Notes: generated by a model not told the origin, from the letters alone. Counted from the first letter of the stretch, positions 1,313-55,752 are shown. The stretch is DNA of 64,000 bases from a virus (IMGVR_UViG_3300033073_000410:51485-115484); one strand, 5' to 3'. A program made the numbers and translations.

Positions 1313-3566
1313 CTTCTCCTACTTTCGCTACTAGTTTCTGTGATACCTCGAACTCGATGGTATCGTTGTTTAATACCGCGTTGATTGTACTATTTTTAAT
1401 ACGTTCAAACAAGATTTTCTTAGATAGAGGCACCCGAATCAATTCGTCAATCTTACGTGACAATGGACGAGCACCCATCTTACTATCATAGCCCTTTTCA
1501 GCTAGATATTCAACAACTGGTTCACTCAAGTTCAACTGAATCTGATATGTGTCATTCAATTGTTTACGCAAGTCCTCTGTAAACTTAAGTACAATCTTCT
1601 TGATAGCCAATGTATCGAGTTTATCAAACTTACAGACCAAGTCGATACGGTTTCTGAATTCTGGCTTAAAGAACTCTTTCAACGCTTTGTCATCTTCACC
1701 TGTACGTTCTTGTGAACCGAAACCAATCACTGACTTCTCACTATCACTAGAACCCAAGTTACTGGTCATGATAATGATACAGTTCTTAGCATTGACTTCT
1801 TTACCGTTCGTGCCGGTCACTCGACCTTCATCAAGTAATTGCAAGAACACGTTAAAGATATCTGGGTGAGCCTTTTCAACTTCGTCAAACAACAAGATAG
1901 CATGAGGGTTCTTGCTCAAGTCGTTGATTAAGCGTCCGCCACCTAAGTTGCCTTCGCCGAAGCCTACGTATCCGGGAGGTGCGCCGAGCAATGCTGACAC
2001 GTTGAACTTTTCACTGTACTCTGACATGTCGTATTTCAACAAGGGCATGTCTAAGTTCTTACTTAACAAACGTGCAAGTTCAGTCTTACCCGTACCAGTT
2101 GGGCCTAAGAACAAGAAACTTGCCATTGGCTTAGTCTCTGGGCTGATGCCAGCAAAACTAACATATAAGCGATCCAATACAGCATCAACAGTCTTTTCTT
2201 GACCATACAACTTATGCTTCACGTTATCGGACAATGTCAACACACGTGCGTTACTGTCATTACTCAACTTGTCAGCAGGGACTTTAGCCATGCGTTCAAC
2301 TTGTTCGTAAATCAATTCTTTTGTAATCTTAGCACCACTGTTGTTCAATACTCTCTGTTTAGCACAAGCCGCATCAATCAAGTCAATTGACTTGTCTGGG
2401 TTCTTACGGTCATGCATGTAACGGGTAGCACTATCTACTGCCGCAACAATAGCGTCATCTTCGATTTCAACATCATGGAAGTCATTCAAGCGTTTGCTCA
2501 AGCCACCAAGAATACGAATAGTTGATTCACGATTTGGTTCGTCAACTGATACACGATAGAAGCGGCGCATCAACGCACGATCCTTCTCGAAACTCTCATA
2601 GTACTCTTCCCAAGTTGTACTAGCGATAACTTTCAATGTACCCTTAGTGATAGCAGGCTTAATCATATTAGCGAAGTCAACACTGCCGTTACTACTGTTG
2701 CCACCAGCACCCTTCATAGTGTGTGCTTCGTCAATGAAAAGAATAGCTTTCTTCTTGGCACTCAATGCTTCGAGTACTGACTTAATCTTTTCTTCAAAGT
2801 CACCGCGATACTTACTACCAGCAAGCAAACTACCGATTTCAAGACTATAAAGAGTATGACCCTTCAAGAAGTCTGGGCAATCGCCGTCAACAATCTTTTG
2901 TGCTAGACCCTCTGCGATAGCTGTCTTACCTACACCAGGATCACCCACCATTAACACGTTACTTTTGAATCGTTTAGCTAATACGTTAACAATCTCGTTG
3001 ACCTCAGTTGAACGACCAATCATTGGTTCTAGTTTACCAGTTTGTGCTAGTTCACTCAAATTGATAGTGTATTCTTCTAGGATTTCATTAGCTTGTGATT
3101 CTGTCAATGCAACGATACTATCATTGTGCTTATAGTTCTTTTGCCAGAAGGGAACAAACTGATTCTTTTCAACGCCATACTTCAATAAAAAGTAATGTGC
3201 ATGGCTATTTGTTTCGTTTAAAATACTAAGATACAAGTCAATGCTTGTAACATTTTTACGACCGGTAAACAATACTTGTGTTACTGCTCGGTTCATTACA
3301 CGCTCTAAACTATGTGTTTTGCGTGGCTGAACATCTTGTCCTTGACTGATATCTACCTTGATTGATTGTAGGTTATCGATATAACTGGTGATTTCCTTAA
3401 TCATCATGTCAGTATCAGCACCAAATTGGTCAAGACATTTCTTAAACGGGGTGAATGTTACTAGTGCTAGTAACAAGTGCTCAATAGTGCAATATTCATG
3501 GTTGCGCTCTTTAGCGAATCCAACTGATGATTCAATGATGGATTCGATTTCTGGTGAATTAGTCAC
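1287..3566 (-). CDS. clpA: ClpA-like AAA+ unfoldase
   Basis: Clp N-domain (EHLLLAL), two Walker A motifs (GDPGVGKT, GPTGTGKT), Walker B (FIDEAH, LFDEVEK), GAPPGYVG, IGF loop, GARPL; no ClpB middle domain. Confidence 0.92.
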   Translation of the reverse strand: MTNSPEIESIIESSVGFAKERNHEYCTIEHLLLALVTFTPFKKCLDQFGADTDMMIKEITSYIDNLQSIKVDISQGQDVQPRKTHSLERVMNRAVTQVLFTGRKNVTSIDLYLSILNETNSHAHYFLLKYGVEKNQFVPFWQKNYKHNDSIVALTESQANEILEEYTINLSELAQTGKLEPMIGRSTEVNEIVNVLAKRFKSNVLMVGDPGVGKTAIAEGLAQKIVDGDCPDFLKGHTLYSLEIGSLLAGSKYRGDFEEKIKSVLEALSAKKKAILFIDEAHTMKGAGGNSSNGSVDFANMIKPAITKGTLKVIASTTWEEYYESFEKDRALMRRFYRVSVDEPNRESTIRILGGLSKRLNDFHDVEIEDDAIVAAVDSATRYMHDRKNPDKSIDLIDAACAKQRVLNNSGAKITKELIYEQVERMAKVPADKLSNDSNARVLTLSDNVKHKLYGQEKTVDAVLDRLYVSFAGISPETKPMASFLFLGPTGTGKTELARLLSKNLDMPLLKYDMSEYSEKFNVSALLGAPPGYVGFGEGNLGGGRLINDLSKNPHAILLFDEVEKAHPDIFNVFLQLLDEGRVTGTNGKEVNAKNCIIIMTSNLGSSDSEKSVIGFGSQERTGEDDKALKEFFKPEFRNRIDLVCKFDKLDTLAIKKIVLKFTEDLRKQLNDTYQIQLNLSEPVVEYLAEKGYDSKMGARPLSRKIDELIRVPLSKKILFERIKNSTINAVLNNDTIEFEVSQKLVAKVGEDGIIEVSQ

Positions 3567-47406: not shown

Positions 47407-47787
47407 ATGATACATAACGAATTTTTCAAGCGCCTTAGCGAAAACCACCCGTTTATCACTGTCTGCTCATATGCAGGGCAGGATTACGTGGGTATTGTCC
47501 AGAATAGGGACGATATAGTTACCACTATCTATGACTATGGGGCAATCATTGGCCCTGACCTCAGAGAGAAGTTCCTAGCACTAGGAGACATTTGGTGGTG
47601 GGAATCTAACAGATTAGTCCCAATCAATATGTTCTTAAAAGAAGAATGGGGCGTGTTCAAACCCTATCTACGAACGTTCAACAACAAAAGTTTAAACATA
47701 ATACATGGCCCCATTTGTAGTATGTTAGAATTGAATAAGCGCAAGAGCAAGCGCAAATCAATTACCCTTGTTAAAAGACTCCCGTAA
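47407..47787 (+). CDS. Hypothetical protein
   Basis: ORF; GATAAATA upstream. Confidence 0.7.
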   Translation: MIHNEFFKRLSENHPFITVCSYAGQDYVGIVQNRDDIVTTIYDYGAIIGPDLREKFLALGDIWWWESNRLVPINMFLKEEWGVFKPYLRTFNNKSLNIIHGPICSMLELNKRKSKRKSITLVKRLP

Positions 47788-48342
47788 CAAATTCATATGA
47801 ACGACAACAAGATTTGCGTAGGCGACACTATGACTTTTCTTAAACTGATATCCATCAGAACCCTTTTCCCAGACAGATTCAGAAACCGTTTTCCATGTGG
47901 AGCCAATCAAGTGGTTCTTCGCTGGGCGGATCGCCGCAAGGAACATCGCCAATCTAGGGATAGAGTTAACAGGTTCAGGCATCTTCTGAAGGCTATCATA
48001 GTGGTTAGCTAAGTGAATTAGTTGTTCGACTATCTTTCTGTCCTTCAACATATTCCAATCAGGTTCATCCATTAACTCAATCAAGTGACGTTCATCACGT
48101 ACTTTCTCATACACGTGAACGTTCAACATATCTAACTTAACATATCCGCGTTCTTCTGCTACAGTATAATCCAAGTTAGCAATGTCATTGTCACTGTCAT
48201 ACGGAATCTCAGTAACATAGATACCAGTCGCATGTTTGCGTACTGGATGCACTCTACGCATTGCCGCAGGTATATACTTGATATGTTGTAAGATATCATC
48301 ACGGTTACCGAAGTCAATATCTATGTCTGATTGAAATTTCAT
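47758..48342 (-). CDS. dnaE: DnaE-like fragment carrying the catalytic aspartates and a trimmed fingers region
   Basis: SDIDIDF, KHATGIYV, GYVKLDMLN, LAAIRPA, GYQFKKSHSVAYA. Confidence 0.87.
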   Translation of the reverse strand: MKFQSDIDIDFGNRDDILQHIKYIPAAMRRVHPVRKHATGIYVTEIPYDSDNDIANLDYTVAEERGYVKLDMLNVHVYEKVRDERHLIELMDEPDWNMLKDRKIVEQLIHLANHYDSLQKMPEPVNSIPRLAMFLAAIRPAKNHLIGSTWKTVSESVWEKGSDGYQFKKSHSVAYANLVVVHMNLLRESFNKGN

Positions 48343-48890
48343 GGGTTTACTAATTCTGCTTTCATCAATTTCTTGTATGCTTGTTGAACAACGATTGCTT
48401 GACGTTCAGCATCTTCTACAGCCTTGTGACTTGTTGTGTGTCCACCGTCTTTGAGTTTAACGTTACAAATGTCATAGATTGTACGTGTATCTCTAATGTT
48501 CCAGAAGTTCCAAGGTGCTAACTGATTGTGGTCTCTCCAAGCTGACTCCATTACAACAACGTCAAAACTTGCACCGTTACTCCATACTTTACCATTGTTA
48601 TACTTCCAGCACCACTTATACAATGTATCCATACAGTCTTTGTATGATACTCTATCTCTGTCGCCCAGTGCTTCTTCTTGTGCAGCCTCTGATTGTTCAC
48701 TCCACCAACGCAATGTATCTGGATTGATGGAACGATTAAAGATATCAGTTTGTTCTTCAATCGTGGGGCGCAATTCTATTTTATCTATAATGCCATTGCC
48801 CTTAGGGTCAAACAATACTGCACCTATTGTCAATATCACACAGTTTGGAGTCGTGTCCAAACTTTCAATGTCAATCATTATGTCAGCCAT
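48339..48890 (-). CDS. DEDDh 3'-5' exonuclease
   Basis: MIDIES, NGASFD, RDTRT, HKAVEDA. Confidence 0.88.
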   Translation of the reverse strand: MADIMIDIESLDTTPNCVILTIGAVLFDPKGNGIIDKIELRPTIEEQTDIFNRSINPDTLRWWSEQSEAAQEEALGDRDRVSYKDCMDTLYKWCWKYNNGKVWSNGASFDVVVMESAWRDHNQLAPWNFWNIRDTRTIYDICNVKLKDGGHTTSHKAVEDAERQAIVVQQAYKKLMKAELVNP

Positions 48891-49099
48891 TATTTTTTCT
48901 CTTTTCTTGATGTGTAAGGTTGTTCTAGTCTAGGCAAACCGCAATCAGCACAATTGCATCTAGCCCATACCATAGTATTGTAATCACTTCTTTCTAGTGT
49001 TTCGTATGATGTCCAACGATGCCATCCTAGTCTACACTTCCATGATTGAATGGGCTTCATTCCTGTCAGCACTCGCCAAGTGTTTTCTGCACTTTTCAT
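48890..49099 (-). CDS. Small Cys/His zinc-binding protein (CRxGxHxW...CxxC)
   Basis: WKCRLGWHRW...CADC; paralogue of 59433..59669. Confidence 0.7.
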   Translation of the reverse strand: MKSAENTWRVLTGMKPIQSWKCRLGWHRWTSYETLERSDYNTMVWARCNCADCGLPRLEQPYTSRKEKK

Positions 49100-49395
49100 T
49101 TGATTAACTCCATAACTATCTTCAACTTTTCAATCTGGTCATTCACAGTAGGATTGTCTCTATGCTTCCAAACTTCATGTGCAAAGTTTTTAAACTTTAT
49201 TTCTTCTCTTAGTTCAAATGGTACTGTAAATATGCGGTTAGTTCCATTACCTAGATAGGTCATAATATTACCATCTATATTAACATTAATGTTAGCCCCG
49301 GCGCTAGGAGCTTCATTGAATACGAGGTGATGATTCAGTTCTTCATATTCATACGGTGATTGCATTATCCCGTTAATTGATACTAACGTTGTCAT
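49096..49395 (-). CDS. Hypothetical protein with an INGIMQSP...FNEAP (tail-domain-like) motif
   Basis: ORF, TAATG-coupled. Confidence 0.6.
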   Translation of the reverse strand: MTTLVSINGIMQSPYEYEELNHHLVFNEAPSAGANINVNIDGNIMTYLGNGTNRIFTVPFELREEIKFKNFAHEVWKHRDNPTVNDQIEKLKIVMELIK

Positions 49396-49676
49396 TAGTT
49401 TTTCCACATTTCATAAGTGAACTTCTCTTTCTCACCCCAGACTTCAATGTACAACAATCCACCTGCCATCCAGAAGTCCCACATTCTACCACGCTCACCT
49501 AGGTTTCTACGACACCATTTGATATATTCAGTTAAGTCTATCTTTTGATAATTGAGGTCGATAGTATGTAAGATACGTCCATTACGACTAGCATCATAAC
49601 TAGACTTATCCGCCACATTGTAAGTAGGTAGCGGAGCAAATGTTCCTGTGCTTCTTCCTATTCCTGATATTGCCAT
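49395..49676 (-). CDS. Small array protein, divergent LRW-family member
   Basis: WCRRNLG...W motif. Confidence 0.65.
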   Translation of the reverse strand: MAISGIGRSTGTFAPLPTYNVADKSSYDASRNGRILHTIDLNYQKIDLTEYIKWCRRNLGERGRMWDFWMAGGLLYIEVWGEKEKFTYEMWKN

Positions 49677-49894
49677 TATAGATACCTTAAACTAAACCAT
49701 GTTGCTAGTTCTTCTTTGTAGAAGATGAATATAGTGTATCTATTATACACGGCTTCGTATGTTGTTTCACTATATTTGGGCTTATGATATTCAAAATCAT
49801 AATCTATACCCTGAACATACCCACTCTTTCTTATTTCCCTAACGATGTCCATTACTTCGTTGGGCATCTTATCCAAAAGTTTAATTTCAATCAT
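49676..49894 (-). CDS. LRW-family small protein
   Basis: Ends FYKEELATWFSLRYL. Confidence 0.7.
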   Translation of the reverse strand: MIEIKLLDKMPNEVMDIVREIRKSGYVQGIDYDFEYHKPKYSETTYEAVYNRYTIFIFYKEELATWFSLRYL

Positions 49895-50142
49895 TGCGGG
49901 AATTGTAATAAGAACCAACTAGCGTAGCTGTCATCTTCAAAAGTAAGTTTCCAAACTCTGTAATGACTAGTATACTTCTTGCCATCTTCACCATCGACAA
50001 TTGATTGTTCACTGTGCAACTTAGCCATCCATCCTTCACCACCGACACTATTATGAATGTAATGAAGTCTAGGGCCTACGTTTTTAGCAAGCCAATCTTC
50101 TGCTCGTGAACTCAAACCACTCTTAAGTGTTATAGTTATCAT
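49891..50142 (-). CDS. LRW-family small protein
   Basis: WLAKNVG; ends FEDDSYASWFLLQFPQ. Confidence 0.7.
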   Translation of the reverse strand: MITITLKSGLSSRAEDWLAKNVGPRLHYIHNSVGGEGWMAKLHSEQSIVDGEDGKKYTSHYRVWKLTFEDDSYASWFLLQFPQ

Positions 50143-50408
50143 GTCCACCTCAATAGAAACGCTGTAAGGAACTCATCCTTACATAGCATGATTTCTCCAA
50201 ATTCACAATTGTCAACCCAGTAACTATCTTCAATATCTTCTCTATAGCCACTCTTACCAAAAGTTTCACAGCACCAATTTTGAATCTCGTTCGCATCAAC
50301 CTCACCTTTACCTTTCCAGCTAATAGTAGTTATGTTTCGTTCACTGAATGGATAATGCTCTACCCAATATTGAAAGGACCCTAATTGTTTAACTTGTTTC
50401 ATTGCCAT
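50139..50408 (-). CDS. LRW-family small protein
   Basis: WCCETFG; ends FLTAFLLRWT. Confidence 0.7.
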   Translation of the reverse strand: MAMKQVKQLGSFQYWVEHYPFSERNITTISWKGKGEVDANEIQNWCCETFGKSGYREDIEDSYWVDNCEFGEIMLCKDEFLTAFLLRWT

Positions 50409-50650
50409 CTTAGTATAAACCATTCCATATCTTTTTTCTCACGAAAGTAAAATCTGCTATTGTTAATGTACCATCTTCCGCCGGGTGAAAATACTCCATC
50501 TTTCGGTAGTGGTCCAAATGATTGTAAGCACCAGTCTTCTAACTCTTTCCATTCTTCTACAAACCAAGTACTAACGTGTGCTTTGAATATAGGTTCGGCT
50601 GAGTAGTACCGTGCCCCATAGATTCGTCCTTCGTCAAATCTTAACTCCAT
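50399..50650 (-). CDS. LRW-family small protein
   Basis: WCLQSFG; ends FREKKDMEWFILRWQ. Confidence 0.75.
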   Translation of the reverse strand: MELRFDEGRIYGARYYSAEPIFKAHVSTWFVEEWKELEDWCLQSFGPLPKDGVFSPGGRWYINNSRFYFREKKDMEWFILRWQ

Positions 50651-50901
50651 CGTAGAATAAACCATTCTGCATCTTGTTTGTTCTCAAATAGATAATCGCT
50701 ACCTAATCTGCGATAACTACCTTTACATGTTCCGGCTAACCAAATGTTAATATCAACAGCTTGTGTATTGTTTTTGAAATGATATCCGACGGGGATCCAA
50801 CCGGAGTTAACTAACATGTTAGATATGATACCTTCATCCATTTCTCTGGCTATCTCATTAGCCAAAATATCATATATTTCTTGTTCTACATCTTGTTTCA
50901 T
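50641..50901 (-). CDS. LRW-family small protein
   Basis: Ends FENKQDAEWFILRWS. Confidence 0.75.
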   Translation of the reverse strand: MKQDVEQEIYDILANEIAREMDEGIISNMLVNSGWIPVGYHFKNNTQAVDINIWLAGTCKGSYRRLGSDYLFENKQDAEWFILRWS

Positions 50902-50903
50902 AT

Positions 50904-51086
50904 TTACGACCACCTCAACATATACATCATATAAACATCTTCATTCATCCACAGATTTTCTAATCCATAGTCGTATTCTTCGCCCCAGCGCCCGCCATTG
51001 ACTCCGAAGTTCATAACTAACCACAGTTTAACTTCTGCTTTTAACTTCCAAGGCCAACGCTCAGTTACAATTCCATATTGTTTCAC
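50904..51086 (-). CDS. LRW-family small protein
   Basis: WLVMNFG; ends YMMYMLRWS. Confidence 0.7.
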   Translation of the reverse strand: MKQYGIVTERWPWKLKAEVKLWLVMNFGVNGGRWGEEYDYGLENLWMNEDVYMMYMLRWS

Positions 51087-51304
51087 ACCCACCTCAGTTC
51101 ACACATTAGTGCATGTTTTTCTTCTTCAAACCAAATGTCAAGTGATTCACCGGAAGAACGATACCTAATCTCAAAAAGGTCTTCGTTGTATTCTACTAGT
51201 TGTTCAACCCACTCTCTTATCACTAACACTTCGTTAATCCGTGATTCTATATCGAACAAGTTTGTTGTTCGTAGTTTGACATTAACTTTGTAATTCACGA
51301 CCAT
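51083..51304 (-). CDS. LRW-family small protein
   Basis: Ends WFEEEKHALMCELRWV. Confidence 0.7.
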   Translation of the reverse strand: MVVNYKVNVKLRTTNLFDIESRINEVLVIREWVEQLVEYNEDLFEIRYRSSGESLDIWFEEEKHALMCELRWV

Positions 51305-51525
51305 TTCAATATAAACATCATCAAATCTGATTCACGGTCAATTCTAACCTCGCCGTACTTGATATCATCAACCCAACGAACATCTGCTGTATCATTTCTA
51401 TAGCCGGGCTCACCGAATGTTTGATAACACCAGGTTCTAATCTCAGCCTGTACAAGTATTTCTTGCATAGGGAATGCCACAGTAGTGTAGTTCTTGTATG
51501 TTGGTTTATAGTAAATCAGTTTCAT
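51295..51525 (-). CDS. LRW-family small protein
   Basis: WCYQTFG; ends DLMMFILKWS. Confidence 0.7.
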   Translation of the reverse strand: MKLIYYKPTYKNYTTVAFPMQEILVQAEIRTWCYQTFGEPGYRNDTADVRWVDDIKYGEVRIDRESDLMMFILKWS

Positions 51526-51791
51526 TCCCACCTCAACAAGAACCAAGAATACTTCTTATCATCTACAATTTTGTAGTCAGTCATCTTCCAGGAAGTTGCA
51601 TAAGTTTGTTGTATTTGATATTGTATAAGTTCAATATCAACCCCATGCTCTGTTAGCATGTGATGTAGGAAGGAATCATTCCTAGGAATACCTGTAACTA
51701 CTCTTGCTTCACCTGGTAGTGGAAGCTCTTTTCCAATTGCTTCTTTCCAATACTTATATATGACTTTCTCAAATTTTTTGATATCCTGCAT
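51522..51791 (-). CDS. LRW-family small protein
   Basis: Ends IVDDKKYSWFLLRWE. Confidence 0.7.
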   Translation of the reverse strand: MQDIKKFEKVIYKYWKEAIGKELPLPGEARVVTGIPRNDSFLHHMLTEHGVDIELIQYQIQQTYATSWKMTDYKIVDDKKYSWFLLRWE

Positions 51792-51793
51792 AA

Positions 51794-52237
51794 TTATGAC
51801 CACCTCAACATAAACATCATGTAATCTCTTTCATCTTTGAAGGCAAAGTAAACAAAATCACTGCCACCGATATCATTGAACCAATAATCTTCATGCAAGT
51901 CATTGTCGATTCCTATACCAGTTTGCTTATGCACTCGGTGAATGTCTGCACGCCATTTGAATCTAATGTTCCAATCACACCATGAACGCATTTCATTGTA
52001 GCCAAACACTAAGCCACCGGGACCGTAGTCACCTAGACACTGGTACGCATAGTGACTAGGATTTTCACAACGATAGACATGGGTATATCCACTGTAGAAG
52101 TCACTTACTTTATCAGCATAACGGCAAACATCAGTATCACGATTGTGCCGATATGTTGCCCAATTGGCATAACCACTCTTTGCTAACTTTCTGTTAGCAA
52201 GATACTGGCGCCAACGTGCTTTAAGTCGTAGATTCAT
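51794..52237 (-). CDS. LRW-family protein, long form (147 aa)
   Basis: Ends FAFKDERDYMMFMLRWS. Confidence 0.75.
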   Translation of the reverse strand: MNLRLKARWRQYLANRKLAKSGYANWATYRHNRDTDVCRYADKVSDFYSGYTHVYRCENPSHYAYQCLGDYGPGGLVFGYNEMRSWCDWNIRFKWRADIHRVHKQTGIGIDNDLHEDYWFNDIGGSDFVYFAFKDERDYMMFMLRWS

Positions 52238-53409
52238 TTCAAATATCCTATGTCAGTGCGATACACGTACTCACCCATTTTCTGTGTTTTTAAATATGCG
52301 TATATTTTATCACTGGCTTGACTAATTGTAAATCCCTTTGATGTAAAAACATATGAACTACTGTACCCAGGTCTAGTGTAAGTTATATCTTTGGGTACAT
52401 TAATGAATTCGGGCTTCTCACTATTTGGGTCATACTTATAGTCTTTGGGTGATACTACCACTGTAACTGCTTTGTCATCAGAGAATGTTATTTCGGGTAG
52501 TACTAAGCCCATAGTAGCAGAGTAAAGTAATGTGCCTAACTCATTCGTAACAGTAGATATTATACTTAATGATTCAGGGCAACCAAATCTAGTATTGATT
52601 TCTAACACTAACGGAACGTTGTCTTTATCGAAGATGATACCCAAGTAAAGTATACCGACGTAAGGGTCGCCTTGTTGCGACAAGTAGTTTAGTATCTTAT
52701 CTACATACTGGTCAACGATATAGAATCGGTCAGTGATACTGTATGAGCCTACACCTTCTGTGTTAAAACCCTTGTCATCGTTCTCAAACTTTTTATAATC
52801 TCTCGCAGAGCCTAAGTACTTCCAATTAGTATCGTTACAAATCGCATGGTAAGATATCTCATGTTTGCTGTCGATAAATTCATCAATGATGAATGTCTCC
52901 ACTGGAGAATCTTTCATCCTATCATACTCGTCTAGTTGATTAGTATCAGTAACTATAACTGTTTGCAAGCCCTCGTTCCAGTATTTGTTATACTTTAGAA
53001 CAAAAGGTCGTTGAATGATAAAGAAGCATTCTATTAGTTCTTCTTTACTGAGAACTTGATGCTTGGGTGTAGGTATGTTAAGTTCGTTTAACATATCCTT
53101 TGTTTTACTCTTATCCCATTCTAACAATGCGTTATTATGTGATGGCATAAAGCAAGGCGTGTCTTTAATCGCTTCACGTAATTCTTCTGACAACTGATAC
53201 TCAAGTTGAGTAGGAATAATCAAATCAAAGTTGAGTTTCTTTATGCATCCAATCAAGTAGTCAAGTGATTCTTTGGCTGGTAGAGGTATATAGTTGTCCT
53301 CTACCTGGTAGGTAATGTTAGCCCCATAGTGATAGACTGTGTTAGACTTAGCCAACAATTTAGATATGAAGTGTGCTGAGGGTATTCTACCTATTACCAG
53401 AATTTTCAT
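52234..53409 (-). CDS. Divergent phosphoribosylamine-glycine ligase (PurD/GARS)-like ATP-grasp enzyme
   Basis: MKILVIG, LEWDK..TK, RDYKK...GFNTEGVGSYS, YVGILYLG, LEINTRFGCPE, YRTDIG. Confidence 0.8.
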   Translation of the reverse strand: MKILVIGRIPSAHFISKLLAKSNTVYHYGANITYQVEDNYIPLPAKESLDYLIGCIKKLNFDLIIPTQLEYQLSEELREAIKDTPCFMPSHNNALLEWDKSKTKDMLNELNIPTPKHQVLSKEELIECFFIIQRPFVLKYNKYWNEGLQTVIVTDTNQLDEYDRMKDSPVETFIIDEFIDSKHEISYHAICNDTNWKYLGSARDYKKFENDDKGFNTEGVGSYSITDRFYIVDQYVDKILNYLSQQGDPYVGILYLGIIFDKDNVPLVLEINTRFGCPESLSIISTVTNELGTLLYSATMGLVLPEITFSDDKAVTVVVSPKDYKYDPNSEKPEFINVPKDITYTRPGYSSSYVFTSKGFTISQASDKIYAYLKTQKMGEYVYRTDIGYLK

Positions 53410-53678
53410 AGGTACTTGAGTACATATAGCATGTACTTACCTTCATCAGTGATTGTATATTCTCTCATCACATTACCGTGAATATCGAACAGAATTTTTA
53501 TGCCGCATTCTTTTTCTATCCACTTGTCAAAGCTATCTTCTTTGCCAGTGGTAGTTGGTTCATAGTACCCGGTATATTGTTTCTGATATAAGTCTTTCAT
53601 CTTTCGCATGTTGCGCCAAAAGACCCATTGCTTATTAGTAACCACGTTATGATACTCGATAAATTCGTTAGTCTGCAT
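53406..53678 (-). CDS. LRW-family small protein
   Basis: Ends ITDEGKYMLYVLKYL. Confidence 0.7.
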   Translation of the reverse strand: MQTNEFIEYHNVVTNKQWVFWRNMRKMKDLYQKQYTGYYEPTTTGKEDSFDKWIEKECGIKILFDIHGNVMREYTITDEGKYMLYVLKYL

Positions 53679-53967
53679 GTGTCAATAAATCAAATGCGGT
53701 GGCATATTGAACTTCAGGCTCCATGTGGAAGCCGGTACCCCATACTACCCAAACTCTGCGCTTGTATGCTTTAGTCCAGAACAACGGTACGCCGCTGACA
53801 CTTCTGCGAGGCCACATGACGAATGTTTCAGTCCACGGATAGCAATCTGCACCGTCCGTTATAATTTTTGTTATATTCATCATTGATCCTGGAATAGGTT
53901 GTGTTAGTTGTACCATCTTGTTTAGTTCTATGTTGAAGTTTATACTTCTGCCCCAGACTATCTTCAT
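53668..53967 (-). CDS. Hypothetical protein
   Basis: ORF, ATGA-coupled. Confidence 0.65.
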   Translation of the reverse strand: MKIVWGRSINFNIELNKMVQLTQPIPGSMMNITKIITDGADCYPWTETFVMWPRRSVSGVPLFWTKAYKRRVWVVWGTGFHMEPEVQYATAFDLLTHAD

Positions 53968-54401
53968 CGCTGTAATATAGCCCACATGTCAAGTTTATGT
54001 GTGGCTTCTTTTGCTTTTTCTTCTGCTTTGTGTTGATATTCTCTTGCTACTCTAACATTATACTTTTCTGTTTCAATCTGTTCATTCAATTCTTGAATCA
54101 ACTCAGCCACAGTTCTCGCCTTAAGACTCTTAACTTCTTCTCTTTCTTGCTCTAACAAAAACTGAGTATGTTTAAGTTCATCCTCAAGATGTAAGATATA
54201 ATGTCCTGGATGATACCGATTACAGTTTACAACACTTACAAAATCACAATAAGTATCATCCATACCTGCATTTAACAAGTCATCCATGATTGCGCCTTTT
54301 GTGCGTTGCATAACTGTGGCTATTTTAACTCGTACTGGATCAGTATCGTATCTAATAACATAGTCCATTAGTTCATCGTCTGTTAGGTGATTTAAGTTCA
54401 T
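53964..54401 (-). CDS. Hypothetical coiled-coil protein
   Basis: ORF, ATGA-coupled. Confidence 0.65.
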   Translation of the reverse strand: MNLNHLTDDELMDYVIRYDTDPVRVKIATVMQRTKGAIMDDLLNAGMDDTYCDFVSVVNCNRYHPGHYILHLEDELKHTQFLLEQEREEVKSLKARTVAELIQELNEQIETEKYNVRVAREYQHKAEEKAKEATHKLDMWAILQR

Positions 54402-54628
54402 AACCACATCAATCCAAAATATGTTGCGTCACTTTGTTTTTGAAACCTGAAGGTTGCACTTTTATAGTCTTTTGATTCATGCATCCAAAAGCCCTTGCAC
54501 TTACGTTTACAAAACTTCTTTGCCTTCTCAATCTTCATATCAAATTCAAAATATCTTTCGGAAAGATTGTGAAGGGTAATTTCATGCTCTGTTTTACGTT
54601 TATGTTGCCTACGTTGTTGTGAATTCAT
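54398..54628 (-). CDS. LRW-family small protein
   Basis: Ends FRFQKQSDATYFGLMWL. Confidence 0.7.
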   Translation of the reverse strand: MNSQQRRQHKRKTEHEITLHNLSERYFEFDMKIEKAKKFCKRKCKGFWMHESKDYKSATFRFQKQSDATYFGLMWL

Positions 54629-54843
54629 TAGGAGTACCTCAATACAAACATCATATATAGTTTTTCATCATGCCATTTGACATTCATTATGCTATTGGGT
54701 TGTTTAGATTTTGCAATCGTTGCGTTATACTTCTTTAGTGTATCTTCAATGATTTCTTCAGGATCATGTGACTTGATAAAATTGTTGAAGTAACAATTTC
54801 TTTTGTCTGGAACTGGGTAACGAAAATATTGTTTCTTTATCAT
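54628..54843 (-). CDS. LRW-family small protein
   Basis: Ends WHDEKLYMMFVLRYS. Confidence 0.7.
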   Translation of the reverse strand: MIKKQYFRYPVPDKRNCYFNNFIKSHDPEEIIEDTLKKYNATIAKSKQPNSIMNVKWHDEKLYMMFVLRYS

Positions 54844-55082
54844 TATAGCCACCTCAAGCTAAATTGAATAGCATCTTTTTCATCATAGAAATAGAAGTCC
54901 ATGTAATCAGTCAATGGATGCCACGAGAATCGTGTACCAGGCATACCATACTGTTCGATAGCCCAAGCACAGATTTCATTCCATGCTTCATTGTTGTTAC
55001 GACCATCACGCCAGTCAAGGCGTACTTTAGTACCCCGCCATTTTGAGGGTGTCTTGGATTCGTTGTTTAGTATCTGTGTCAC
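54843..55082 (-). CDS. LRW-family small protein (start uncertain)
   Basis: WAIEQYG; ends FYFYDEKDAIQFSLRWL. Confidence 0.7.
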   Translation of the reverse strand: MTQILNNESKTPSKWRGTKVRLDWRDGRNNNEAWNEICAWAIEQYGMPGTRFSWHPLTDYMDFYFYDEKDAIQFSLRWL

Positions 55083-55752
55083 GGTGAAACTTCAATGCCC
55101 ATTGTTCTGGATTTATATAATCAGTAATCATTGTAACTTGACCTGGATTTAATGTCTCTAGAAAACGGATACCGCTGTCGCTACAATACAACATCCATGG
55201 TGATATTTTACCCGTTGTTATGGCATGACATATTCGATTACTGTTCCCATAGCGCAAAACATCATTGGGCTGGATATTTTCGTTTTCACTTTGGGTAATA
55301 CAGTACTCAACGCTACGATGAATCGCATCAAAAGGATCCTCTACCCGTAAGTACTCTATAAGAAAACGGGTATACGTAGAGTCTGTATTCCAAACGTCTA
55401 TCTTAATTTGGTTCTTGAGTAACCATTCAACATACCTACTGACATTAATCACATTTGCATCAGCACAGTATGAACCGAACTTAGCAAATGCAGTATAGTA
55501 TGGACTACGAATGAATTCTTCTACTGTTTTGTTCTTTGTCTTGCTCATTGAGTTCTTCGTATAGAACTGCAACCAAGACTGAAACGCTAACCGATTACCT
55601 TTGTTATCTTTGTTTAGCCAACGTGATTTGGTCTCACATATATGAGATATTATAGTTTTCTCTCTGGAGAATTCACGATTACAAAATTCACAACTAAACT
55701 TTAGTGGTTTAGTTGTTTCCGTGTTCTCGCTCGTATTCTTTGATATCTTCAT
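55027..55752 (-). CDS. Hypothetical protein with an N-terminal C2HC zinc finger
   Basis: FSCEFCNREF...HIC. Confidence 0.75.
   Translation of the reverse strand: MKISKNTSENTETTKPLKFSCEFCNREFSREKTIISHICETKSRWLNKDNKGNRLAFQSWLQFYTKNSMSKTKNKTVEEFIRSPYYTAFAKFGSYCADANVINVSRYVEWLLKNQIKIDVWNTDSTYTRFLIEYLRVEDPFDAIHRSVEYCITQSENENIQPNDVLRYGNSNRICHAITTGKISPWMLYCSDSGIRFLETLNPGQVTMITDYINPEQWALKFHRDTDTKQRIQDTLKMAGY

Follow-up and report, generated by a model that had tools for sequence, protein, structure and literature searches.

The 64,000-nt window analysed here (the whole stretch, IMGVR_UViG_3300033073_000410:51485-115484) makes up the final 64 kb of a 115,484-bp virus record in IMG/VR. Its segment 49395-55082 carries, on the minus strand, an array whose 14 firm members and 1 probable one belong to a single family of small proteins; it is interrupted by a purD-like gene and by two unrelated small genes (53964-54407 and 53668-53985). 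We refer to these proteins as the LRW-tail family, after their C-terminal motif. As we describe below, the array occupies a dispensable site where gain, loss and replacement act on whole genes at the junctions between them, the array genes are under purifying selection and evolve 3-10x faster than their neighbours, and each of the proteins consists of little more than one domain of ~60-90 residues, predicted to form a two-layer sandwich. The family is undescribed and has been seen so far only in viruses. The genes of the site are listed here from the upstream to the downstream anchor. E denotes the leave-one-out profile E-value, and the relatives named are the closest phage (L024), a syntenic Logan contig (L004) and a contig of a separate phage lineage (L002).

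55027..55752, minus strand: conserved 241-aa gene that anchors the variable site upstream; L004 and L024 counterparts 63-85% identical.
54843..55082, minus strand: member of 79 aa ending FSLRWL (E 3.5e-6), the first cassette after the 241-aa gene; orthologues 69% (L004) and 82% (L024) identical; tail written TTG AGG TGG, with the next gene's ATG 6 nt downstream.
54628..54852, minus strand: member ending FVLRYS (E 1.5e-5); likely start ATG at 54843 (71 aa), with GAGG before it; cassette wholly absent from L024 (breakpoints 54845 and 54628).
54398..54628, minus strand: member of 76 aa, basic (pI 9.8), ending FGLMWL (E 0.015); external homologue (P0121) 78% identical.
53964..54407, minus strand: non-member of 147 aa with a helical, charged C-terminal half; no profile match, no Pfam family; L024 orthologue 53% identical.
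53668..53985, minus strand: non-member of 105 aa, conserved in relatives; no profile match; orthologues 51% (L004) and 66% (L024) identical.
53406..53678, minus strand: weak member of 90 aa ending YVLKYL (E 0.012, yet above all non-members); L024 orthologue 70% identical.
52234..53409, minus strand: non-member of 391 aa, a diverged ATP-grasp / phosphoribosylglycinamide-synthetase-like (purD-like) gene (Pfam GARS_A, E 2e-21), found in 1 of 46 relatives, the closest one (L024).
51794..52237, minus strand: member of 147 aa ending FMLRWS (E 8e-4), with an 80-residue N-terminal extension and the module in residues 81-147; an L024 alignment block terminates exactly at its stop codon (51796).
51522..51803, minus strand: member ending FLLRWE (E 8e-7); likely start ATG at 51791 (89 aa), in which form it is the representative P0058.
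51295..51546, minus strand: member with the best consensus match, ending FILKWS (E 4e-12); likely start ATG at 51525 (76 aa, ATGA overlap), preceded by GAGG; used for the structure model.
51083..51304, minus strand: member of 73 aa, acidic (pI 4.7), ending CELRWV (E 9e-4); orthologue absent from L024.
50904..51092, minus strand: member of 62 aa, near the minimal fold, ending YMLRWS (E 3e-4); 59% identical to an L002 array member; L024 has 0.9 kb of additional DNA beginning at its junction.
50641..50913, minus strand: member ending FILRWS (E 2.4e-5), with a capsid-like N-terminal helix; likely start ATG at 50901 (86 aa).
50399..50665, minus strand: member of 88 aa ending FILRWQ (E 2.4e-6).
50139..50423, minus strand: member of 94 aa ending FLLRWT (E 3e-9); L024 orthologue 82% identical; closest paralogue of 51295-51546, at merely 35% identity.
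49891..50148, minus strand: member of 85 aa with the variant ending FLLQFPQ (E 0.007); L004 orthologue 58-60% identical, ending FLLKFPQ.
49676..49918, minus strand: member of 80 aa ending FSLRYL (E 7e-6); L004 orthologue 50% identical.
49395..49676, minus strand: probable divergent member of 93 aa ending FTYEMWKN, with a W-C-R-R-N-L-G core (E 1; wider profile E 0.0012); L004 orthologue 64% identical.
48339..48890, minus strand: Rv2179c-like 3'-5' exonuclease, downstream anchor (Pfam PF16473, E 4.7e-34); 110 relatives in IMG/VR.

We used a hidden Markov model of the last 60 residues in leave-one-out tests, which returned 14 of the 15 candidates with E between 4e-12 and 0.015 and ranked each above every non-member among the 770 open reading frames (ORFs) of the genome. 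An earlier description of this DNA (the sequence-only reading) had proposed a paralogous family and listed 14 C-terminal endings; all 14 were found on the minus strand where it had placed them, and the C-terminal profile bears out the family. The remaining candidate, 49395-49676, was not recovered in this test (E = 1), and its retained W-C-x-x-x-L-G core, its score against the wider profile and its L004 orthologue make it a probable divergent member. The tail pattern [FY]-x-L-[RK]-[WYF], located 1-3 residues from the stop and preceded by E-x-D, is exact in 12 of the 15 proteins by our count, with CELRWV and FGLMWL deviating at one position and FLLQFPQ and FTYEMWKN as variants; over the family, the column frequencies are 95% for F71, 98% for L73, 97% for R/K74 and 94% for W75.

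The family extends well beyond the window. Three further members outside the training set (E 1e-10 to 2e-5) were found at genome positions 2145-3059 (L001), adjoining a metallophosphatase gene (L001 1264-2115), and in L002 an 11-kb run of 36 members comes after a metallophosphatase gene and an HTH_39 gene; together, this cluster and the L002 layout point to at least two expansion sites for the family in the phage group. A profile search of 1.84 billion representatives returned 447 clusters (50% identity) at E <= 1e-3, all of 56-143 aa and nearly all with the module as the C-terminal end, and no longer fused forms of 206-2000 aa were found, a search that is weak evidence. No family model for the window members, or for a set of 112 members across the family, was found in Pfam, PHROGs or NCBIfam, and the best match in a profile search of PDB sequences was a forkhead domain at E 0.38, which we take as chance. 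The nearest ESM Atlas clusters were viral and hypothetical only. Searches by blastn and tblastn of 50,697 GenBank phage records found no match to the region or to two members, with one weak hit (E 0.05) pointing to the cultured Sinorhizobium jumbo phage Phosso. That phage proved to have ~20 scattered matches, all annotated hypothetical, and the cultured phage Atu_ph07 has ~3 weak ones. Literature searches turned up no description of an LRW-tail family.

Among the grounds for doubting the family, the sequence-only reading had named absence of a common fold and a motif due only to constraint from the ribosome-binding site (RBS), and neither holds. With regard to the first, an AlphaFold2 prediction for the 76-aa member (51298-51525), made with an alignment of 112 members, gave a mini-fold of beta-beta-alpha-beta-beta-alpha topology at pLDDT 96.6 and pTM 0.83, and a second modelled member (50644-50901) was predicted at pLDDT 86 with a long helix in place of strand 1; the fold of the other members is read from the alignment. 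Near-invariant columns (W32, G38, W51, F71, L73 and W75) are mostly hydrophobic, and variability is located in the N-terminal part of helix 1, in loops and at alternate strand positions. In the model, the W-C-x-x-x-F-G motif falls in helix 1, an R-W pair in strand 3 and F-x-L-R-W at the end of helix 2. The spacing of the invariant hydrophobic columns fits residues facing between sheet and helices, and we therefore read the conserved Trp, Phe and Leu as the probable hydrophobic core of the sandwich; what had been proposed as a constant docking helix appears to be mostly fold core. Similarly, the N-termini, which had been called unrelated, are in most members beta1-beta2 of the same fold and are reached by the profile, and only three or four members are truly extended there. 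Members range in pI from 4.4 to 9.9. A homodimer prediction with 2 copies of the 76-aa member scored 0.01 and is uninformative either way.

Comparisons with known structures yielded little beyond topology. Foldseek found no match in the PDB at E <= 0.001, and its matches in BFVD were solely to uncharacterised proteins of uncultured phages. An exhaustive structural aligner, applied to both models, returned at best generic alpha/beta sandwiches (Z <= 5.9), foremost DCoH / pterin-4a-carbinolamine dehydratase (PCD; PDB 1uso, 2ebb, 3jst) and acRAF (4low), which share the b-b-a-b-b-a order and the two-layer sandwich. These matches (1uso_B, Z 5.9; 2ebb_A, 5.6; 4low_B, 5.5) cover 65-68 residues at rmsd 2.7-3.0 and 3-8% identity, their Z of 5.5-5.9 lying under the best Z of 7-8 that the tool typically gives for models lacking a clear Foldseek match. 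None of the 112 members matched the PCD/DCoH family in Pfam (PF01329) at E <= 0.01. PCD/DCoH enzymes carry conserved active-site histidines; in the LRW-tail family, His is commonest only at positions 4-5 in strand 1 (23-36%) and is not prominent in the helices or in strands 3-4. We read the DCoH resemblance as one of common topology only.

The tail of these proteins also has a role at the RNA level. L-R-W is usually encoded TTG AGG TGG, which contains a GAGGTG Shine-Dalgarno (SD) site for the next gene; GAGGTG is complementary to the 3' end of 16S rRNA by standard base pairing. The codon AGG was found at 10 of the 12 motif arginines, whereas it accounts for 4.2% of arginine codons across long ORFs of the genome; in the L002 array the figures are 15 of 19 motif arginines and a background of 10%. 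GAGGT[GAT] with a start codon is present at 9 of the 18 junctions, 8 with an ATG 3-9 nt on, and the arrangement is thus not universal; among 108 other ORFs, GAGGTG was upstream of none. At most junctions the stop and start share 1 nt (TAATG) or 4 nt (ATGA), and at two they are 2 nt apart, such that the earlier description of overlapping ORFs is correct in kind and overstated in extent when likely starts are used. In textbook translational coupling, the SD site lies inside the upstream gene and the two genes meet in ATGA or TAATG overlaps. The array resembles this arrangement in that 3-9 nt separate the SD site from a start codon which overlaps, or lies directly against, the stop of the gene upstream, and differs from it in that the site is borne, by means of a rare AGG, on a motif conserved throughout the family, so that the signal travels with every cassette. 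Since the tail both ends the protein and supplies the SD site, an inserted cassette would bring a translation signal for its downstream neighbour.

With regard to RBS constraint as the source of the motif, tails with the Lys variant use AAA or AAG, and members with CGA or AGA likewise keep the amino-acid motif without an SD site; in Phosso, where members are scattered and stand alone, F-K-L-R-W is written with CGC or CGT. Persistence of the motif without an SD site in these cases argues that the protein motif is primary and that its codons were recruited for coupling in the phages with arrays.

The duplications that produced the array are old, as had been proposed. Most members have their nearest relative in another phage, with a far stronger match than to any paralogue of their own genome; in the seven clearest cases identity to it is 57-78% over most of the protein, and the best own paralogue is only ~26-36% identical; the absence of long DNA repeats was also confirmed, with 23-46-nt junction motifs and one 77-nt stretch at 70% identity as the only repeats in the array. 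Closer relatives elsewhere, together with a junction motif as the only repeated DNA, are the basis for considering the duplications old. Recent amplification of the kind called a genomic accordion was considered and rejected, because the closest paralogues are 35% identical in protein and there are no near-identical tandem copies. Genomic accordions of large eukaryotic DNA viruses, such as poxvirus K3L amplification (reviewed in PMC13359090), resemble the array in that one gene family varies in copy number at a fixed locus, a variation thought to serve adaptation to host defences, but they are recent, near-identical amplifications whereas the array copies are ancient and ~25-35% identical.

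Turnover of cassettes was seen directly in a census of 46 related IMG/VR loci with both flanking genes present. Between the anchors, these loci have anything from 2 nt with 0 members (9 loci) up to 7.7 kb with 15 members and the purD-like gene, and the member counts seen were 0, 3, 4, 5, 6, 7, 8, 10, 11, 12 and 15; complete relatives of 360-367 kb have 6-10 family matches. In L004 the site holds six genes, orthologues of a subset of those in the window, in slightly changed order. Aligned with L024 at the DNA level, the window shows 82-85% identity in the flanks of the array and 67-73% in the array itself; the limits of the alignment blocks, at 54845/54628, 51796 and 50910, coincide with gene junctions, and one of the differences takes out exactly one cassette. 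It was also observed that L024 (2628-3579) has ~0.75 kb of extra DNA relative to window positions 53964-54178, around the 147-aa non-member; as this region differs between the two closest phages, the dynamics of the array also touch unrelated genes.

The T4-type hyperplastic regions, in which promoter-early stem-loop (PeSL) cassettes are shuffled (Arbiol et al. 2010, PMC2839356; PMC4122927), are similar in that small, non-essential and mostly function-unassigned genes lie between conserved core genes and are inserted, deleted and replaced whole at short conserved junctions. However, the PeSL junction is a promoter and terminator in intergenic space, and the array has no such space; its junctions are coding, being made of the end of helix 2, the SD site and the stop/start overlap. 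Also, PeSL regions are made up of unrelated ORFans, whereas every array cassette encodes a member of a single protein family. A sigma-70-like early promoter and stem-loop terminator between genes, as in PeSL cassettes, were not found in the array, where such sites are at chance level and no gap reaches 40 nt.

Divergence in the array is accompanied by selection on each gene. In comparisons of window and L024 orthologues all pairs gave dN/dS < 1, with array genes at 0.08-0.56, values that are rough since dS is near saturation; dN was 0.09-0.63 for array genes vs 0.02-0.085 for flanking genes. L004, L005 and L006 differ too little from each other for usable dN/dS.

One member has an N-terminus that resembles part of a capsid protein. 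The N-terminal region of 50641-50913 matched positions 169-214 of 376 in the Pfam Gp23 model at E 4.5e-5 (23.5 bits vs a cut-off of 24.4), and its residues 8-33 align with 198-223 of the capsid protein of Phosso at 38% identity (26 residues). We rejected 50641-50913 as a Gp23-type major capsid protein (PF07068), as the match is a sub-cut-off fragment only and the protein is a look-alike, not a capsid. Gp23 matches were found in 3 of 112 family members (best 1.7e-8), and the capsid-helix subfamily recurs in relatives (P0153-P0160; L004 3122-3376). In the subfamily model (pLDDT 86), a 30-residue helix (3-32) replaces the first strand and is followed by b-a-b-b-a. Phosso itself has a family member (L013 1924-2304, minus strand) that resembles capsid residues 336-376 (E 6e-7), and a 226-aa ORF (L022 1396-2076, plus strand) that resembles the very conserved capsid segment 77-117 (41%, E 2e-9), which indicates that capsid fragments are present in several small non-capsid genes of that phage. 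No gp23-type capsid gene was found in the record, which is 33% complete. When the variable N-terminal regions were compared with the 122 larger ORFs on the contig, which represents one third of the genome, no match was better than E 0.08, and mimicry beyond the capsid-like helix was not seen. The capsid look-alike, in one of fifteen members, is the sole hint at a mechanism, which may be mimicry or decoy. An extension of this idea, which we regard as unlikely, is that the mini-fold is a display scaffold, with a stable core that presents variable surfaces and, in some members, peptides copied from the most conserved proteins of the phage itself, here the capsid helix of 50641-50913 and in Phosso another capsid segment. 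Such members would decoy host immune sensors that recognise those proteins, or else tune capsid assembly, and the self-coupling junction would let phages trade the cassettes ready to express.

The record that carries the array is a fragment of a larger genome. CheckV estimated its completeness at 33%, or about one third of a genome; the best counterparts of its tail sheath protein, at 34%, are in the jumbo phages Atu_ph07, Phosso and PA5oct, and relatives fetched by way of the flanking exonuclease gene include 360-367-kb contigs that CheckV scored as 100% complete (G001 and G002). The complete relatives and the tail-sheath likeness show that the record derives from an uncultured jumbo phage of roughly 360 kb.

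Almost all genes of the window are on the minus strand, and minus-strand coding from 61431 to 47758 has no gap of >=40 nt. This block contains a helicase, several conserved function-unassigned genes, the array, the Rv2179c-like exonuclease and the gene for a DnaE C-terminal fragment; the operon shared with the exonuclease and dnaE-C, as claimed in the sequence-only reading, thus stands to the extent that the array is co-directional and gap-free with both genes. No late-promoter motif was found within the 61431-47758 block, and promoter-like sites (49 vs 42.5 +/- 5.7 expected) and terminator-like sites (9 vs 5.1 +/- 2.3) were at chance level. Judging from gene packing, the array is probably co-transcribed with the replication block. 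Two small ORFs lie nearby. Between the array and the exonuclease, a 69-aa ORF (48890-49099) with a C-x-x-x-x-H...C-x-C-x-x-C pattern may encode a small zinc-binding protein and lacks an orthologue in L024. The sole plus-strand ORF in the vicinity (47407-47787, 126 aa) occupies the one interruption, of 434 nt, in the minus-strand block, and it is probably real and conserved, given a 126-aa gene on the opposite strand at the same place in L004 and L005.

In the aggregate, this is a hyperplastic site filled with LRW-tail cassettes, and we consider it fairly probable that these constitute an accessory repertoire of intracellular binder proteins, directed at host interaction or counter-defence and not part of the replication machinery. 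The array genes would act inside the infected cell, where a stable core would carry surfaces that differ from copy to copy; one subfamily would add a helix taken from the major capsid protein. A stable core with differing surfaces suggests that each copy binds a different host or phage target, and the set would then serve as an accessory repertoire for host interaction or counter-defence.

Several points weigh against this interpretation. No homology detected in Pfam, PHROGs, NCBIfam or the PDB sequence and fold searches bears on function, and Acr, Tad, Gad and Ocr-type inhibitors gave no match in these same libraries, which are general and none of them anti-defence-specific. The best fold match, DCoH at Z 5.9, is under the tool's stated noise level of 7-8, and the matches are generic. 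Core and surface were distinguished by conservation and periodicity rather than by measured burial, and the conserved polar residues E28, R50, E65, D67 and R/K74 could form a shared docking patch. As noted above, the dN/dS values are rough; transcription timing is read from gene packing, with promoter scans at chance level. Finally, because the record is one third of a genome, copy numbers, absences and self-similarity searches are partial.

Such a docking patch would fit another explanation, in which the proteins are adaptors or subunits that dock by a constant face (helix 2 and the W-C-x-x-x-F-G turn) on one phage partner, for example the polymerase halves, the exonuclease, the clamp or a Clp-type unfoldase, and select substrates through their variable faces. 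Two observations are consistent with this proposal: the array shares a single block, free of gaps, with helicases, the exonuclease and the DnaE C-terminal gene, and the conserved polar residues accompany the hydrophobic core positions. Yet the nine relatives that keep both flanks without any array (the count varying from 0 to 15), together with the quite different neighbourhoods of the family in L002 and Phosso, weaken the replication-adaptor idea that the sequence-only reading had put forward; the invariant positions are mostly hydrophobic, and fusions with known domains were not found, which is weak evidence. We regard this role, too, as unlikely.

Slightly less probable, in our judgment, is that the cassettes are largely neutral or selfish passengers that persist through their own coupling signal and junction micro-homology and bring the phage little benefit. 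The whole array is dispensable at the site, its content turns over quickly between phages with 82-85% identical flanks, and the junction motif is the only repeated DNA, points in favour of this reading. However, dN/dS is below 1 in every orthologous pair, reading frames are intact throughout, and paralogue lineages have been kept at 57-78% across distinct phages, and as far as Phosso at the profile level.

Bacillus phage G has ~35 copies of a zinc ribbon, a lineage-specific expansion in a jumbo phage (Iyer et al. 2021, PMC7824862), and these were proposed to be transcription factors. By analogy, the LRW-tail proteins might be small nucleic-acid-binding regulators, an explanation that we find improbable. 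The two cases are alike in presenting tens of diverged copies of a small domain whose function is a guess. They differ in that the LRW-tail family has another fold and no metal-binding motif, spans many lineages (447 clusters at 50% identity) rather than one phage, and has its copies chained by translational coupling. There is a weak structural likeness to RRM, KH, ACT and eIF1-type alpha/beta sandwiches, and a few members are strongly basic (pI 9.4-9.9), but 11 of 18 members have pI <= 6.0, the conserved aromatics seem to fit a core better than an exposed sheet face, and no fold match rose above noise. The last explanation, that the shared C-terminus is a mere by-product of the need for an SD site in ORFs without a common fold, and perhaps unrelated, accounts for GAGGTG within TTG AGG TGG and for the strong over-use of AGG there, but is very improbable and already contradicted by conservation that extends 40-50 residues upstream of the tail (W32, G38 and W51), by the confidently predicted fold, and by the tails described above that keep the motif with other codons.

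The new elements of this study are the 46-locus census at an anchored site, the use of Phosso codons as a control that parts protein from RBS constraint, the leave-one-out statistics, and the comparison of capsid-like fragments with a real capsid protein. They concern a family with no database entry or solved structure, on which jumbo phages nevertheless spend kilobases: 14-15 copies here, 36 in L002 and ~20 in Phosso. A tail that doubles as the RBS of the next gene fuses coding and regulatory constraint, and would let cassettes shuffle without breaking expression. Copies that are conserved one by one, fast-evolving and swapped among close relatives have the signature expected of host-interaction or counter-defence genes, and the family may thus provide a large pool of candidates for such functions, with Phosso as a culturable system for functional work.

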